From: a virus
Lineage: Duplodnaviria; Heunggongvirae; Uroviricota; Caudoviricetes
IMG/VR virus record: IMGVR_UViG_2645728048_000025
Strand: one strand, 5' to 3'
DNA: 15,946 nt
Part shown: positions 1 through 15,946 of the stretch, piece after piece
Numbering within the stretch: position 1 is the first letter of the stretch
How the letters are laid out: each line of letters starts with the position of its first letter
Notes under the pieces: model-generated
What the model was told of the DNA's origin: nothing
Seen by the model: the letters and a program-made list of their open reading frames with translations, nothing else
Database searches by the model: none
Program-made: the position numbers and the translations under genes

Positions 1-561
1 CAGAGCGTCATACAGCGGCTTAACAGTGCGTGACCAGGTGGGTTGAGTAAGGTTTGGGATTAGCATCGTTACAGCGCGATATGCGGCGCTTGCTGGCATC
101 CTTGAATAGCCGACGCCTTTGCATCTTCCGCACTCTTTCTCAACAACTCTCCCCCACTGCTCCGTTTTGGCTATATCAACCGCACGGCCTGTACCGTGAC
201 AATCTCTGCATCTTGCTCCCGGCGTCGCAGCACTACGGCAATAATCCGCATAAGCGAATGTTGCGAGCACTTGCAGTACCTTTGCCTTAGTATTTCCTTC
301 GAGCTTTGCCACACCACGGTATTTCCCCGATACCTTGTGTGCAAATTGCATCAGATAGTTGATAGCCTTTTGTTTGTCGTTCTGGCTGAGTTCATGCTTA
401 CCGCAGAATGCAGCCATTCCGAATCCGGCTTGTGATTGCGCCATCCCCATAGCAGCCATCACATCAGTACCGGAAAGAGAGTCAGAAGCCGTAGCCCGTG
501 GTGAGTCGCTCATCATCGGGCTTTTTGGCGAATGAAATTTAGCTACGCTTTCGAGTCTCAT
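1..561 (-). CDS. Q: Late-gene antiterminator Q (lambda-type), partial; C-terminus lies beyond the window start
   Basis: Minus-strand translation from ATG at 561 reads MRLESVAKFHSPKSPMMSDSPRATASDSLSGTDVMAAMGMAQSQAGFGMAAFCGKHELSQNDKQKAINYLMQFAHKV..., which matches lambda Q as I recall it. Not in the ORF track because it runs off the window edge. Start overlaps the upstream small ORF stop (ATGA). Confidence 0.85.
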   Translation of the reverse strand, partial: MRLESVAKFHSPKSPMMSDSPRATASDSLSGTDVMAAMGMAQSQAGFGMAAFCGKHELSQNDKQKAINYLMQFAHKVSGKYRGVAKLEGNTKAKVLQVLATFAYADYCRSAATPGARCRDCHGTGRAVDIAKTEQWGRVVEKECGRCKGVGYSRMPASAAYRAVTMLIPNLTQPTWSRTVKPLYDAL

Positions 562-4326: not shown

Positions 4327-5763
4327 TCAGAATCCTCCTTTCTTCTTGGACTGCGGTTCCTCGCGTTCACGGCGGCGCATTTCAGCAGACTGTTGGTCTG
4401 TGTCATAAATAGCGCCATTTGCCTGTATGCAATACACCGTGCCGGTATTGCCATGACGATTGAGGCGAAGGATTAGTTCGGTTTCACCAGGAGGAACGCT
4501 GTCATCAAAAGCACCTTCACGATGGATCCCCACCCAATAATCGCAATCCTGTTCAATCTGCCCTGTATCTCGTGAGTCACTTGGTAATGGGCGTTTATTG
4601 GTTCGGCTTTCCAGTGCGCGGTTAAGCTGTGTCAGAAGCACAACAACGCAATCAAGCTCTTTGGCAAGGTTCTTCAGTCCTTTGGTGATCATGCCGTAAG
4701 CAAGGTCGTTGCGATCGGCCTTCTCAGCAGTCATTAGTGTCAGGTAATCGACCAGAATCATGCCAACACATCCTTTTTCTCGCTTGATTCGACGGCTTTC
4801 GCTGACGATTTGAGCCAGAGATAATCCCGGCGTGTCGTCGATGTAAAGCAGGTCGATTTCACTCAAGCGATTGGCTGTTTCGATCGCCCTGTTGAAGTCA
4901 CCATCGTAATCACCCTGATAGCCGTCATCAGCGTCATTTGTCGCCGGAAGGTAAAAAATATTCGGGTTAACACCTGACTTCTGTCCCACCAGTTTTTCCA
5001 GTATCTGGTCACCTGGCATTTCAAGGCTGAACATCAGAGCGGGCTTTTTCTCATGCACTGCACAGTTGATTGCCATCTGGCTGTATAGCGTCGTTTTCCC
5101 CATCTTAGGGCGAGCGCCAATGACAAACAAAGAGCCTTTCACCAGACCTTTCGGTGACAGCATCCTGTCCAGCGATGGGATCCCTGTGCTCATTCCCCGT
5201 TGTTCGCCTGATGGGTCAAATCGCTTCTCAAGGTCGCTAACCCAGTCTTCCATGACCTCACCAAATGAGCGAAGGCCGCGACGCGATCCGGTTTTTGCAT
5301 GGTCTGTCAGTTGCGTGAAAATCGCCTGAATAGCTTCGTACTTCTGCGTTGCAGTCATTCCATTGCGGGAATAGAGCAATTCCGTCGCTTCAGTCATGCG
5401 GTTGATGGCGTAGCGTTCCATTGCGGTTTCACGAACCTGCATTGCATAGGCAACGATGTTTGCTGCGCTTGGCGTGTTCTTTGCGATCTCAGCGATATAA
5501 GCAAAACCGCCAACAGACGCCGTTAACGATTTACGCTCCAGTTCATCGAAAAGCGTCAGGCCATCTACTGGCTTTTGCTCCCGGTGCATTCTGGTTATTT
5601 CTTCGAAAAGGATTTTGTGTGGTCGGCCGTAAAATGAATCAGGCTTCAGCATCGCCAGAACTTTCTGGACGCGCTCACTGCTGTCATCATCCAGAAGCAA
5701 TCCACCAATCACCGCCTGCTCTGCCTCGATGCTATGGGGCGGCGCATAAAAATTATCGGTCAT
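4327..5763 (-). CDS. Replicative DNA helicase, DnaB family (P22 gene 12-like)
   Basis: Walker A GARPKMGKTT and DnaB-like layout over about 478 aa. ATG at 5763 (MTDNFYAPPH) preceded by GAGGGTGAA is preferred over the track's GTG start at 5778; it overlaps the O-like stop by 11 nt. Confidence 0.88.
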   Translation of the reverse strand: MTDNFYAPPHSIEAEQAVIGGLLLDDDSSERVQKVLAMLKPDSFYGRPHKILFEEITRMHREQKPVDGLTLFDELERKSLTASVGGFAYIAEIAKNTPSAANIVAYAMQVRETAMERYAINRMTEATELLYSRNGMTATQKYEAIQAIFTQLTDHAKTGSRRGLRSFGEVMEDWVSDLEKRFDPSGEQRGMSTGIPSLDRMLSPKGLVKGSLFVIGARPKMGKTTLYSQMAINCAVHEKKPALMFSLEMPGDQILEKLVGQKSGVNPNIFYLPATNDADDGYQGDYDGDFNRAIETANRLSEIDLLYIDDTPGLSLAQIVSESRRIKREKGCVGMILVDYLTLMTAEKADRNDLAYGMITKGLKNLAKELDCVVVLLTQLNRALESRTNKRPLPSDSRDTGQIEQDCDYWVGIHREGAFDDSVPPGETELILRLNRHGNTGTVYCIQANGAIYDTDQQSAEMRRREREEPQSKKKGGF

Positions 5764-6514
5764 CGTGTTCACCCTCACGAACTTTCAGGTAGGTATTATC
5801 GTTAAGCAGGAAATCAAATCCCTTTTTGTGCCAGACGGTTCCGCGATGATGGTTTGGGCGCTCTTCGAACATCCATCGGCAATTTTCGCCTACGTAGCTC
5901 AAATAATTTCTCCAGTCCTGCATCGTGAACCCATGCCCGTCAAGCTGGCGGGTTATCACTCCGGCTTTGCGCCAGAACGTTCGGATCTGGTTTTTACGCT
6001 TGTCATTCAGTGCGCGGATTCTTGGCGCTTCAGGAAGGATTTCGTGGTAAGCATCGACAACATCCTGACAGCTAACGGAAGGTTTTTTCTTGTCAGACTT
6101 TTTGTCTGCTGTGGCACTCTCTAATACGTCAGTATTAGAGATATTATTTATATTATTGTTTATGGACAACCGTTGGACAACCGTTGGACAATTTTTTGCC
6201 TGAAAATCGTCATATTTAACGATTGTAAACAGGCTAAATTTCTTCCCCATCGAGCAAATATTAAGCATCCCTTTCGACTCAAAAGTCCGTAATAAGCTCC
6301 GAACTTTGTTGTCGGGGATGAATGTTTCTCTGACCAGCGACGGGCGTCCAGTTATCATCTGACCGCGATCAACAGTTATCGGACCGATATCCGTATTGAC
6401 GACAGTAGATTCGTGATTAGCCTTGAGGATTAAGTGAAGCCAAAGATGTACTGCCTGAGAGTCCTTATAGAGCCTGCTGTCCATAAACTGGCGGTGTATA
6501 GAGACATACCCCAT
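5753..6514 (-). CDS. Replication initiator, lambda O-like / P22 gene 18-like
   Basis: Start chosen at MGYVSIHRQFMDSRLYKDSQAVHLWLHLILKA (ATG 6514 preceded by CAGGAGG), a typical replication-protein-O N-terminal domain. An Asn/Ile-rich linker (SINNNINNISN) is encoded by the AT-rich ori segment. It sits upstream of the helicase. Confidence 0.8.
   Translation of the reverse strand: MGYVSIHRQFMDSRLYKDSQAVHLWLHLILKANHESTVVNTDIGPITVDRGQMITGRPSLVRETFIPDNKVRSLLRTFESKGMLNICSMGKKFSLFTIVKYDDFQAKNCPTVVQRLSINNNINNISNTDVLESATADKKSDKKKPSVSCQDVVDAYHEILPEAPRIRALNDKRKNQIRTFWRKAGVITRQLDGHGFTMQDWRNYLSYVGENCRWMFEERPNHHRGTVWHKKGFDFLLNDNTYLKVREGEHDDR
6118..6195. repeat. Candidate origin of replication inside the O-like gene: palindrome, AT-rich tract, 11-bp iterons
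   Basis: 24-bp perfect palindrome TCTCTAATAC-gtca-GTATTAGAGA (6118-6141); AT-rich tract 6141-6162; tandem TGGACAACCGT at 6163-6173 and 6174-6184 plus a partial third copy TGGACAATTTT (6185-6195). Confidence 0.55.
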
Positions 6515-6563
6515 ACTGGATGCCTCCTGATGTTGTACAGGGTTATGCCTGTAATCAGCTAAC

Positions 6564-6725
6564 TTAACGACGCCCATGTTTCACTCCTGCTTTGGCTAGT
6601 CTGTAAACACCAACAAGGCGCTCTGCGAACGCCCTGTTATTTGCTGCGGCTACCACTAATCCCTCAGGTGAATCAGGGTGTCGAATCTCTTCTTTTTCCT
6701 GGTATTTCTTACGACGTTTTGTCAT
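6564..6725 (-). CDS. Small basic ORF (53 aa) between cII and the O-like gene; uncertain
   Basis: MTKRRKKYQEKEEIRHPDSPEGLVVAAANNRAFAERLVGVYRLAKAGVKHGRR with AGGAG 5 nt upstream of the ATG. Its start codon coincides with a CATAAT -10-like hexamer on the opposite strand, so the interval may be regulatory instead. Confidence 0.3.
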   Translation of the reverse strand: MTKRRKKYQEKEEIRHPDSPEGLVVAAANNRAFAERLVGVYRLAKAGVKHGRR

Positions 6726-6759
6726 AATTACTCCTGTGGATTGATCCAGTCTTTCTACA

Positions 6760-7038
6760 TCAGGCCTCGAAGAATTCGCCGTTCTTCGGGGCTTTTTCTT
6801 TTGTCAGCATTCTGGCTACTTTCTTAGCCAGTTCCGCCAACTCCTCGTCTTCAACACCCCATTCAAGAACAGCAAGAAGCATTCCCATTTTGGGGATGAA
6901 GCTGTCTTTCCATCGAGAAATTTGCGATTCATTAATCCCTAACGCGTCGGCAACCTTTCGCTGACCACGTACAGCAATTCGATTCAGGATGTTGCTTGTA
7001 ATTGCATTCGCTTTCTTGCGAGTACTTGTAAGTTCCAT
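6760..7038 (-). CDS. cII: CII transcriptional activator (lambda cII / P22 c1 homologue, 92 aa)
   Basis: From the internal ATG (MELTSTRKKANAITSNILNRIAVRGQRKVADALGINESQISRWKDSFIPKMGMLLAVLEWGV...); the ESQISRWK ... MLLAVLEWGV stretch matches lambda CII as I recall it. Confidence 0.85.
   Translation of the reverse strand: MELTSTRKKANAITSNILNRIAVRGQRKVADALGINESQISRWKDSFIPKMGMLLAVLEWGVEDEELAELAKKVARMLTKEKAPKNGEFFEA
6767..6802 (+). terminator. Plus-strand intrinsic terminator inside the 3' end of cII (antisense), OOP-RNA-like
   Basis: Stem CGAAGAA / TTCTTCG (6768-6774 / 6782-6788) with a 7-nt loop, then GGGC and TTTTTCTTTT. Antisense to the cII 3' end, the position of the OOP terminator in lambda. 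Confidence 0.45.
6992..7005 (+). promoter_or_regulatory. CII-binding motif TTGC-N6-TTGC, candidate PRE -35 region (transcription towards cI)
   Basis: TTGC (6992-6995), ttgtaa, TTGC (7002-7005) on the plus strand within the 5' part of the cII coding region, the arrangement of PRE in lambda. Confidence 0.45.
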
Positions 7039-7096
7039 ATGTAAGTATTTCCTTAACAAATAAGAAGTTATGCGCATCAACTTATGCGCGTTGTAT

Positions 7097-7139
7097 TCCC
7101 GCATTTCGGCGGGAATGAGGACCATGACTGTTAAAGAGC
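7097..7139 (-). promoter_or_regulatory. nutR: boxA GCTCTTTAACA plus boxB hairpin
   Basis: Minus-strand boxA (plus 7129-7139) and boxB TCCCGCCGAAATGCGGGA (plus 7097-7114), immediately downstream of cro; both elements identical to nutL. Confidence 0.7.
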
Positions 7140-7146
7140 GGTGTTG

Positions 7147-7341
7147 CTATTTGTTTTTCTTGTTGCTTGGGAAAGGACGAACTTCCTCTCCAATCACACT
7201 GCCATCAGGCTTTACCGTAACCATGATGTTACGGCCTGCCAGAATGGCCTTGCTGATAGCGCACTGGATTACACCAAAGTCACTGGCTGCTTTAGCCTGT
7301 CCATGGATTTTGGCGTAATCGGCAAGTGTCATTCGAATCAT
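7147..7341 (-). CDS. cro: Cro repressor (64 aa)
   Basis: [62 protein letters not shown], collinear with lambda Cro (C-terminal FPSNKK). ATG at 7341 preceded by GGAGAG. Confidence 0.85.
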
Positions 7342-7370
7342 ATGCACTCTCCGTTATTAACCATGAACAA

Positions 7371-7399
7371 AGAATACTACAGGTATTCAAAGCAATCAA
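7371..7399 (-). promoter_or_regulatory. PR promoter candidate: -35 TTGATT, 17-nt spacer, -10 TATTCT
   Basis: Minus-strand hexamers with 17-nt spacing, overlapped by operator sites 1 and 2; the same -10/operator arrangement recurs at PL. Confidence 0.5.
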
Positions 7400-7436
7400 T
7401 ACTCAGGGTATTTTTAGTTTAAGTACCTTAGCTATT
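7372..7436. promoter_or_regulatory. OR operator triplet, consensus AATAC-N5-GTATT
   Basis: Site 1 GAATACtacagGTATTC (7372-7388, perfect 17-bp dyad); site 2 AATACtcaggGTATT (7398-7412); weaker site 3 AGTACcttagCTATT (7422-7436). Centre spacing about 24-25 bp, between divergent cro and cI. Confidence 0.65.
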
Positions 7437-7447
7437 AGAATTAAGCT
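7413..7447 (+). promoter_or_regulatory. PRM candidate giving a leaderless cI transcript
   Basis: -10-like TAGAAT at 7436-7441 lies 6 nt upstream of the cI ATG with no Shine-Dalgarno; weak -35-like TTTAGT at 7413-7418 abuts operator site 2, as OR2 abuts the PRM -35 in lambda. Confidence 0.4.
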
Positions 7448-8164
7448 ATGGAAAATAAAAAATCACTGACGACAGAACAGCTCGAAGACGCTAAGCGGCT
7501 TAAGGCTTTGTATGAGTCAAAAAAGAAAGAATTGGGAATAACCCAATACTCAATCGCTGATGAACTGGGTATCACCCAAGGAGCGGTAGGGCATTATCTT
7601 AATGGCAGAAACGCGCTAAACGTTGAGGTTGCATCTGGTTTTGCACGATTGTTGCAAGTCTCAATTGCTGATTTTAGCCAGTCAATTGCTGCCAAGGTTG
7701 CAGAACAGGCAGAAAGCCTTAAGAGCGATGCCAACGTAAGGTATGCAGGGGAATACAGAGCAGGAAAGAGGTATCCGGTGTTAAGCAGTATCCAGGCTGG
7801 CTCGTGGTGTGAAGCATGCGAACCATACACCATTAAAGACATAGATGTTTGGCTTGAGTCTGACGCGCATATTCAAGGTAATGCGTTCTGGCTTAAAGTG
7901 GAAGGTGATTCAATGACGGCACCGGTTGGGTTAAGCATTCCAGAGGGAACATTCGTTCTTTTCGATACCGGAAGGGAGGCGATCAACGGCAGCTTGGTCA
8001 TAGCAAAACTTTCTGACTCTAACGAAGCAACATTCAAGAAGCTGATAATCGACGGCGGAAATAAATACCTCAAGGGACTTAATCCTGCATGGCCTCTCGT
8101 GCCAATCAATGGAAACTGCAAGATTATAGGCGTTGCAATTGAGACAAAACTAAGGCTGGTTTGA
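7448..8164 (+). CDS. cI: CI repressor (HTH N-terminal domain plus S24 LexA-like autopeptidase domain)
   Basis: HTH region (ITQYSIADELGITQGAVGHYLNG), putative Ala-Gly cleavage site in YPVLSSIQAGSW, catalytic Ser in EGDSM and Lys in FKKL; collinear with lambda CI. Confidence 0.9.
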   Translation: MENKKSLTTEQLEDAKRLKALYESKKKELGITQYSIADELGITQGAVGHYLNGRNALNVEVASGFARLLQVSIADFSQSIAAKVAEQAESLKSDANVRYAGEYRAGKRYPVLSSIQAGSWCEACEPYTIKDIDVWLESDAHIQGNAFWLKVEGDSMTAPVGLSIPEGTFVLFDTGREAINGSLVIAKLSDSNEATFKKLIIDGGNKYLKGLNPAWPLVPINGNCKIIGVAIETKLRLV

Positions 8165-8181
8165 TCACGCAAGGGGCGATT

Positions 8182-8550
8182 ATGGTTGGAACCGCTATAG
8201 CAAGCTTTTTGGGGATGTTGGCAATCTCAACAATTTACGGCTTAGCGCATGCTTTTATTGCGAAATCTCTATCAGAAAAAATAAGCCAGGCTTGGGCGCA
8301 TAGATCTGCTCGTTTCATGATTCTAGTGGTCATAGCAATACAAGGGATATCTGCATTTATCCTCTATGGATCAAGCTTATACCTGTTGTATCAAGGCGCG
8401 ACATTTACGCCTTACACCAGTGATTACGGAACTCTATACGATGGTAGTGAAGACATCTCTATGGCTTGGATCGTCTTTGGTTTATCTATGGCCGTGTCTG
8501 TTGTAGCAGACATCATTAAGGTAATTCTCGTCTTAACCTTCGCTGACTAA
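8182..8550 (+). CDS. Small integral membrane protein (about 122 aa) immediately downstream of cI; function unknown
   Basis: ATG at 8182 preceded by AAGGGG, 18 nt after the cI stop. Three long hydrophobic segments. Visibly more AT-rich than cI. Occupies the rexAB/sieB-type slot. Confidence 0.6.
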   Translation: MVGTAIASFLGMLAISTIYGLAHAFIAKSLSEKISQAWAHRSARFMILVVIAIQGISAFILYGSSLYLLYQGATFTPYTSDYGTLYDGSEDISMAWIVFGLSMAVSVVADIIKVILVLTFAD

Positions 8551-9711: not shown

Positions 9712-9882
9712 ATGCAACAGTTCGCTATTGCAGGGGCGGCATCGGTTCGCCCTTTCAACCCGATTTTATCGGTGCAGCATTCACGAAAAAATATTTTAAC
9801 CGGAGCAGACTTTAAACAACCAAGAATGAAAAGTTTGCTCGAAAAGCTTTGGGATATTTTGAAACAACAAGGCCGTCCATGA
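9712..9882 (+). CDS. cIII: CIII-like protein (56 aa; putative FtsH-inhibitor that stabilises CII)
   Basis: MQQFAIAGAASV ... SLLEKLWDILKQQGRP, resembling lambda CIII as recalled (MQYAIAG ... RLIDILNQPG); AAGGAG 7 nt upstream of the ATG. Confidence 0.55.
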   Translation: MQQFAIAGAASVRPFNPILSVQHSRKNILTGADFKQPRMKSLLEKLWDILKQQGRP

Positions 9883-14698: not shown

Positions 14699-15946
14699 CT
14701 ATATTGCTGAAGGTACAGGCGTTTCCATAACTATTTGCTCGCGTTTTTTACTCAAGAAGAAAATGCCAAATAGCAACATCAGGCAGACAATACCCGAAAT
14801 TGCGAAGAAAACTGTCTGGTAGCCTGCGTGGTCAAAGAGTATCCCAGTCGGCGTTGAAAGCAGCACAATCCCAAGCGAACTGGCAATTTGAAAACCAATC
14901 AGAAAGATCGTCGACGACAGGCGCTTATCAAAGTTTGCCACGCTGTATTTGAAGACGGATATGACACAAAGTGGAACCTCAATGGCATGTAACAACTTCA
15001 CTAATGAAATAATCCAGGGGTTAACGAACAGCGCGCAGGAAAGGATACGCAACGCCATAATCACAACTCCGATAAGTAATGCATTTTTTGGCTCTACCCG
15101 ATTCACAAAGAAAGGAATAATCGCCATGCACAGCGCTTCGAGTACCACCTGGAATGAGTTGAGATAACCATACAGGCGCGTTCCTACATCGTGTGATTCG
15201 AATAAACCTGCATAAAAGACAGGAAAAAGTTGTTGATCAAAAATGTTATAGAAAGACCACGTCCCCACAATAAATATGACGAAAACCCAGAAGTTTCGAT
15301 CCTTGAAAACTGCGATAAAATCCTCTTTTTTTACCCCTCCCGCATCTGCCGCTACGCACTGGTGATCCTTATCTTTAAAACGCATGTTGATCATCATAAA
15401 TACAGCGCCAAATAGCGAGACCAACCAGAAGTTGATATGGGGACTGATACTAAAAAATATGCCGGCAAAGAACGCGCCAATAGCATAGCCAAAAGATCCC
15501 CAGGCGCGCGCTGTTCCATATTCGAAATGAAAATTTCGCGCCATTTTTTCGGTGAAGCTATCAAGCAAACCGCATCCCGCCAGATACCCCAAGCCAAAAA
15601 ATAGCGCCCCCAGAATTAGACCTACAGAAAAATTGCTTTGCAGTAACGGTTCATAAACGTAAATCATAAACGGTCCGGTCAAGACCAGGATGAAACTCAT
15701 ACACCAGATGAGCGGTTTCTTCAGACCGAGTTTATCCTGAACGATGCCGTAGAACATCATAAATAGAATGCTGGTAAACTGGTTGACCGAATAAAGTGTA
15801 CCTAATTCCGTCCCTGTCAACCCTAGATGTCCTTTCAGCCAAATAGCGTATAACGACCACCACAGCGACCAGGAAATAAAAAAGAGAAATGAGTAACTGG
15901 ATGCAAAACGATAGTACGCATTTCTGAATGGAATATTCAGTGCCAT
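14699..15946 (-). CDS. cscB: LacY-family (MFS) oligosaccharide:H+ symporter, sucrose permease CscB-like (415 aa, complete)
   Basis: N-terminus MALNIPFRNAYYRFASSYSFLFFISWSLWWSLYAIWL and overall layout match LacY-family permeases, and to my recollection E. coli CscB specifically. The start codon is at the last base of the window. Confidence 0.8.
   Translation of the reverse strand: MALNIPFRNAYYRFASSYSFLFFISWSLWWSLYAIWLKGHLGLTGTELGTLYSVNQFTSILFMMFYGIVQDKLGLKKPLIWCMSFILVLTGPFMIYVYEPLLQSNFSVGLILGALFFGLGYLAGCGLLDSFTEKMARNFHFEYGTARAWGSFGYAIGAFFAGIFFSISPHINFWLVSLFGAVFMMINMRFKDKDHQCVAADAGGVKKEDFIAVFKDRNFWVFVIFIVGTWSFYNIFDQQLFPVFYAGLFESHDVGTRLYGYLNSFQVVLEALCMAIIPFFVNRVEPKNALLIGVVIMALRILSCALFVNPWIISLVKLLHAIEVPLCVISVFKYSVANFDKRLSSTIFLIGFQIASSLGIVLLSTPTGILFDHAGYQTVFFAISGIVCLMLLFGIFFLSKKREQIVMETPVPSAI

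Follow-up and report, generated by a model that had tools for sequence, protein, structure and literature searches.

In bacteriophage lambda, the activator CII binds the direct repeat TTGCN6TTGC flanking the -35 element of the promoters pRE, pI and paQ (PMC4651098), and each direct repeat engages two of the four subunits of a CII tetramer (PMC9986795, PMC2995052). For the P22 activator C1, the recognition sequence is quoted from Ho et al. (1992) in PMC10345575 and PMC2629481 as TTGC-N6-TTGC/T. The locus described here is best read against two versions of pRE, those of lambda and P22. At lambda pRE, the CII site TTGCGTTTGTTTGC (TTGC-GTTTGT-TTGC) brackets the -35, a 17-nt spacer leads to the -10, and transcription starts at a position that we take to be 17 nt upstream of the cII ATG. 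At P22 pRE (AF527608/BK000583), the activator site occupies nucleotides 10-23 of c1 and the promoter points through cro into the repressor gene; a single base pair of c1 reportedly alters both the protein and its own TTGT/TTGC site. The P22 site has also been given as TTTCN6TTGT (PMC12111858), a form that we set aside because nucleotides 10-23 of c1 in the P22-pbi record read TTGCGAGTGCTTGT; the deviating form seems to be an error or to refer to another register. The pRE of the phage group to which our locus belongs is already known, being annotated in HK620 (AF335538), Sf6 (AF547987) and HK542 (EF120458) and characterised in P22.

We analysed a stretch of 15,946 nucleotides (hereafter the window), in which a preliminary description had flagged an exact TTGC-N6-TTGC repeat as a candidate CII site of pRE. 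The DNA around this motif is a lambdoid phage immunity region, inverted with respect to the usual lambda map (Table 1). Between positions 6740 and 7460 it is 99.0% identical to mEpX2 and 97.5% identical to HK620 and HK630; in the cII part, identity to Sf6 and HK542 is 98%. The cII product is a full-length member of its family (Pfam Phage_CII, E=1.2e-42, positions 1-91 of 91) and is 97.8% identical to HK620 CII, 87.0% to P22 C1 and 52.9% to lambda CII. The program-made open reading frame for cII runs on the minus strand from 6760 up to an ATG at 7125 (121 aa), and it is this long form that bears the name 'CII protein' in the HK140 record. We prefer the 92-aa form on the grounds of the annotated homologues, with which its start agrees, and of the Pfam coverage. 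The immunity genes cI and cro are of the HK620 type, not P22 c2/cro. N was recognised by Pfam in the window, and no integrase was seen there.

Table 1. Features of the window relevant to the pRE region and the lysogeny-establishment circuit
Feature	Position	Strand	Remarks
Core CII/C1 site of pRE, TTGCGAGTACTTGT (TTGC-GAGTAC-TTGT)	7016-7029	+	cII nt 10-23
pRE -35, GAGTAC, poor match to TTGACA	7020-7025	+	HK542 minus_35_signal maps here
pRE -10, AAGTAT	7043-7048	+	17 nt after -35; HK542 minus_10_signal maps here
Predicted pRE start (A)	~7055	+	Predicted from the sequence identical in lambda between the cII ATG and 7055
Flagged motif TTGCTTGTAATTGC, exact TTGC-N6-TTGC	6992-7005	+	Second copy, about -63 to -50 of pRE
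paQ/Pa23-type CII-dependent antisense promoter in Q (predicted), TTGCGAGCACTTGC at 261-274 with -10 TAGTAT at 288-293	261-293	+	
cI repressor	7448-8164	+	Pfam HTH_3 and Peptidase_S24; HK620 cI annotation; predicted to be expressed from pRE
cro	7147-7347	-	Pfam Cro, E=3.6e-26; HK620 annotation; predicted to be read antisense by the pRE transcript
cII (P22 C1-type transcriptional activator, 92 aa)	6760-7038	-	ATG at 7038
hkaW/orf48-like small gene	6564-6725	-	
O-like replication gene	5753-6577	-	
DnaB-like helicase	4327-5778	-	
cIII-like gene (56 aa, MQQFAIAG...LLEKLWDILKQQGRP)	9712-9882	+	PHROG 550 'CIII', E=1e-22

We located the promoter by its geometry and by the annotations of related phages. 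The core site departs from the lambda consensus by one mismatch, with TTGC at 7016-7019 and TTGT at 7026-7029 on either side of the -35, and the -10 is flanked by the ribosome-binding site and the ATG of cII. The lambda-type arrangement, a repeat flanking the -35 followed by a 17-nt spacer, is satisfied in this region by the core site only. The annotated C1/CII sites of P22-pbi, HK542, Sf6 and HK620 all map to these same 14 bases, and the CII-site, -35 and -10 features of the HK620, Sf6 and HK542 pRE coincide with those listed in Table 1. A sigma-70 consensus scan of 6500-8300 returned no promoter; this outcome and the poor -35 are both expected of a promoter that depends on an activator. On the plus strand, the promoter occupies the 5' end of cII and points antisense through cro into cI; that strand showed no terminator-like site between pRE and cI. 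The preliminary description had read the direction of transcription in the same way.

Comparison with the reference promoters bears out this assignment. The window shares with P22 the position of the site within the activator gene, the TTGC-N6-TTGT half-sites and the orientation, and differs from it in the -10, which is GAACAT in P22. With lambda it shares the bracketed -35, the spacer length, and a -10 and downstream stretch, CATATGTAAGTATTTCCTTA, that is identical in the two phages and overlaps the start of cII. By contrast, the promoter-proximal tetramer is TTGC in lambda (Ala4, GCA) and TTGT in the window (Thr4, ACA). From HK620, Sf6 and HK542, whose DNA in the region is 97.5-98% identical, we found no difference of substance, and the window is another member of that group. 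Thus, the window very probably holds the pRE of an HK620/mEpX2/Sf6/P22-type lambdoid phage, the flagged repeat being a second copy of the activator site placed 24 bp upstream.

The sequence elements suggest how this promoter would work. A tetramer of the P22 C1-type CII would bind the two tetramers of the core site around the poor -35, which would allow RNA polymerase to use the -10 and to initiate near the predicted start. The transcript would cross the nutR/tR1 spacer and cro in the antisense direction before entering cI, so that repressor would be made and Cro expression lowered, as in lambda and P22. In this scheme the sequences, their geometry, their conservation and their homology to annotated sites are observed, and CII binding, the start site and the CII-dependence of pRE are deduced from them.

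Within the spacer of the promoter, between the CII site and the -10, position 7035 (cII codon 2) carries a G/C polymorphism that exchanges E2 for Q2 (AAGTTCCAT vs AAGTTGCAT). It accounts for 11 changes on the tree of cII haplotypes, far above any adjacent site, and either marks recombination or has arisen repeatedly.

What, then, is the flagged repeat? The sequence itself had been read correctly: the 14 bases match TTGC-N6-TTGC exactly on the plus strand, and they lie inside the 5' coding region of cII, at nucleotides 34-47, as the reverse complement of GCA ATT ACA AGC AA in codons 12-16 (A-I-T-S-N). Such a match has little weight by its mere occurrence. The window contains two exact motifs against 1.45 expected, and at least two arose in 90 of 200 shuffles; one-mismatch motifs number 28 against 24.8 expected. 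As neither count exceeds chance, motif counting alone cannot decide the matter. Synonymous recoding of the protein with the codon usage of the window regenerated the exact repeat at the same spot in 10.7% of trials. The position of the repeat is nevertheless non-random, with 10 nt between its end and the annotated activator site of pRE. The window has one other exact match, on the plus strand at 261-274, and this is the site annotated as the C1/CII site of P22 Pa23 and lambda paQ.

The preliminary description took the flagged repeat for the CII site of the promoter itself. In that case its N6, TTGTAA (6996-7001), would serve as the -35 and transcription would start near 7030. No other sequence in the region matches the lambda consensus perfectly, and TTGTAA is nearer to TTGACA than is GAGTAC. 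The records of mEpX2 (JQ182726) and HK630 (JQ086376) already label the same 14 bases 'putative coliphage lambda cII binding site (TTGCnnnnnnTTGC)', a label that apparently rests on matching to the exact consensus only and that conflicts both with the placement in P22, HK620, Sf6 and HK542 and with the promoter geometry. However, the hexamers found in the window at 16, 17 and 18 nt after the N6 (GCGAGT, CGAGTA and GAGTAC) are not -10-like, and among 113 haplotypes a hexamer with A2 and T6 occurs at these spacings in 0, 0 and 1, respectively. The repeat is also missing from P22, whose pRE is characterised, and from all other CII clades, and the site 24 bp downstream has the exact lambda geometry and is universally conserved. 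Given its location at about -63 to -50 and the lack of a -10, the repeat is neither a -35-flanking site nor a promoter in itself, and we rejected it as an independent promoter for want of a -10 at the proper spacing. We regard the placement of pRE on the flagged bases as very improbable. Geometry, annotated records and conservation all point instead to the core site. The interval 6992-7038 that had been proposed for the promoter does contain this real site, but it stops short of the -10 and of the predicted start.

To follow both sites across phages, we assembled 341 related loci and twelve annotated phages spanning the CII family. With the cII of the window as the query, nearly all loci retrieved were 97-100% identical, and diverged homologues were therefore added as queries; the genome collection contributed 8 loci only. 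Sequences were lined up from the ATG of cII, with the window, P22, lambda/434/mEp213, L/mEp043, Cronobacter ENT47670, Yersinia 21.09, Klebsiella RCIP0034 and Erwinia Midgardsormr38 represented. In every clade examined, TTGC-N6-TTG[C/T] was present at cII nucleotides 10-23, or at 13-26 where the N-terminus of CII is one residue longer. In a MAFFT alignment of seven diverse phages, TTGC (7016-7019) and TTG (7026-7028) formed invariant columns. All 123 unique haplotypes carried TTGY-N6-TTGY at the core position, with no loss, and in all 123, from all clades, A2 and T6 were found in the hexamer placed exactly 17 nt downstream of the core N6. When cII and the 60 nt upstream of it were scanned, TTGY-N6-TTGY was essentially confined to the core position and to that of the upstream copy.

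The upstream copy had a different history. It is restricted to the C1-type clade: it is absent from lambda, 434, mEp213, L/ST64T-type phages, mEp043 and the Yersinia, Klebsiella and Erwinia phages, lambda having nothing like a second repeat at cII nucleotides 34-47, and it is imperfect in P22. At least four independent losses of the copy have occurred within the clade, with P22 having CTGC through N16S where the window has TTGC, one lineage (L156) TTTC through A12E and another (L159) TTAC through a synonymous AGT; a further lineage (L262/L263/L101) has also had it destroyed. It has been kept in about eight diverged lineages. The copy occurs almost only where the core site ends in TTGT rather than TTGC; shared ancestry confounds this association. 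The upstream copy is dispensable for pRE function, as P22 and several further lineages do without it.

We then asked whether the upstream copy is constrained beyond its coding content, using 143 unique C1-type haplotypes over 82 ungapped codons and counting parsimony changes per site on a neighbour-joining tree. Four-fold degenerate third positions (n=37) changed 7.0 times on average, and three of them were unchanged: codons 4 (ACA) and 7 (CGC), in the core-site tetramers, and codon 12 (GCA), in the promoter-proximal tetramer of the upstream copy. In the distal tetramer of the upstream copy, Ser15 (AGC) changed once. The corresponding figures for the N6 spacers were 2-4 changes at the four-fold sites of the core site and 3 and 4 changes at the synonymous positions of the upstream copy. 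Both synonymous sites in the tetramers of the upstream copy belong to the 7 that vary least among 76 degenerate third positions; for two sites drawn at random, this pattern has p of about 0.007, or roughly 0.01-0.03 when the slower evolution of the first 17 codons is allowed for. No plus-strand open reading frame that could be a source of synonymous constraint spans the flagged repeat. Counted over all eight tetramer positions, there were 6 changes in the upstream copy and 1 in the core site, and invariant synonymous sites without an explanation also occur at K8 and Q26. The pattern at the upstream copy would be that expected of a bound site, as judged from two positions only, and the near-invariance of these positions argues against a pure by-product of coding. 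This conservation at synonymous sites is the one mildly new point of the analysis.

These data bear on the idea that the upstream copy is a functional auxiliary site. Since one tetramer occupies one direct repeat, it would need a second tetramer, centred 24 bp away; bound at -63 to -50, this tetramer could stabilise the one at -39 to -26 or contact the C-terminal domain of the polymerase alpha subunit, and activation of pRE would be sharpened or strengthened where the core is an imperfect TTGC-N6-TTGT. Both tetramers of the copy are perfect, and as the same type of protein uses an exact TTGC-N6-TTGC at Pa23, CII would probably bind the copy in vitro. The contrast between tetramers and spacer in synonymous change, the retention in diverged lineages, the near-restriction to lineages with a TTGT-ending core and the confinement of the motif to two places in and just upstream of cII are also in favour of such a role. 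Against it, P22 and at least three further lineages have lost the copy without any apparent compensation, and the copy has no counterpart in lambda, in other clades or at the paQ of the window. Furthermore, only two synonymous sites are informative, the invariant sites elsewhere in the gene have no explanation, the association with TTGT is confounded as stated above, and a spacing of 24 bp is calculated to rotate one site by about 100 degrees around the helix relative to the other. We consider this role possible but doubtful. Equally tentative is the more specific proposal that phages of the HK620/Sf6/Cronobacter branch may carry two tandem CII sites in the first 16 codons of cII, both under selection at their synonymous positions, the upstream one perhaps making up for the imperfect core. 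If true, it would amount to an elaboration in the style of class I plus class II activation that has not been described for the pRE of lambda or P22.

Another conceivable role is autoregulatory. CII bound at the flagged repeat, together with the core site, might hinder transcription from pR or translation of cII and so damp the expression of cII, O and P as CII accumulates. Neither site extends beyond nucleotide 47 of the cII coding sequence, both are in the path of transcription from pR, and in lambda convergent transcription from pRE is expected to interfere with pR transcripts. However, the flagged repeat is dispensable in P22, and to our knowledge an activator bound at a -35 region does not act as an efficient roadblock. 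We hold a roadblock to be highly unlikely.

The upstream copy is most likely a by-product of coding for A-I-T-S-N or at most a modulatory extra site, and the narrower reading, that it is a coding by-product or a neutral extra site, is moderately probable in our judgement.

The remainder of the establishment circuit was also examined. The paQ-type promoter maps to the 'P22 C1 protein' binding site and the 'a23' promoter of P22 BK000583, and it resembles lambda paQ and P22 Pa23 in combining an exact TTGC-N6-TTGC with TAGTAT 17 nt downstream. It differs from the pRE region in having a single site, without an upstream duplicate in the same orientation. The Q gene in which it lies shares about 96% identity with lambda Q and P22 gene 23 and runs off the left end of the window. 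The same CII protein would be expected to activate this promoter as well. As to cIII, no lambda-type gene was found by BLAST with the lambda and HK620 CIII proteins, and the cIII-like protein assigned by PHROG had no Pfam match and no significant BLAST match to either of them. It is very diverged from both, and the HK620 genome itself has a lambda-type cIII. The view that the presence of cII and a cIII-like gene leaves the circuit intact agrees with what we found: the two family assignments and the paQ-type site, taken with pRE and cI, make the circuit look intact at the sequence level.

Several further features of the window were recorded. An oop-like antisense RNA unit on the plus strand (6700-6803) overlaps the 3' end of cII and contains, at 6762-6794, a strong hairpin of terminator type with a T-run behind it; in the P22 record, a terminator and a lambda-like promoter are placed at the equivalents of about 6755-6797 and about 6700-6728, respectively, and a search of this region returned no significant Rfam family. 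Directly 3' of cI and overlapping its stop codon, a hydrophobic 129-aa open reading frame (8161-8550, plus strand) matches PHROG 6534, of unknown function (E=2.6e-78), and occupies the position of HK620 hkaS; it is possibly an exclusion or membrane protein expressed from the prophage and co-transcribed with cI. At the right end of the window, a gene on the minus strand (14699-15946) encodes a 415-aa multi-pass membrane protein. The phage records that match it name a sucrose permease or an MFS transporter, and the gene is either cargo or flanking host DNA.

In this phage group, matching to the exact consensus, as done in the preliminary description and apparently in the annotation of mEpX2 and HK630, leads to the wrong 14 bases for the CII site of pRE, 24 bp away from the site that geometry, conservation and annotated homologues identify. 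The intact-looking establishment circuit helps in judging whether this phage or prophage is temperate. If the upstream copy proves functional, the C1-type phages that retain it would carry two regulatory sites inside the coding sequence of the very protein that binds them, and sites and coding sequence would be evolving together.
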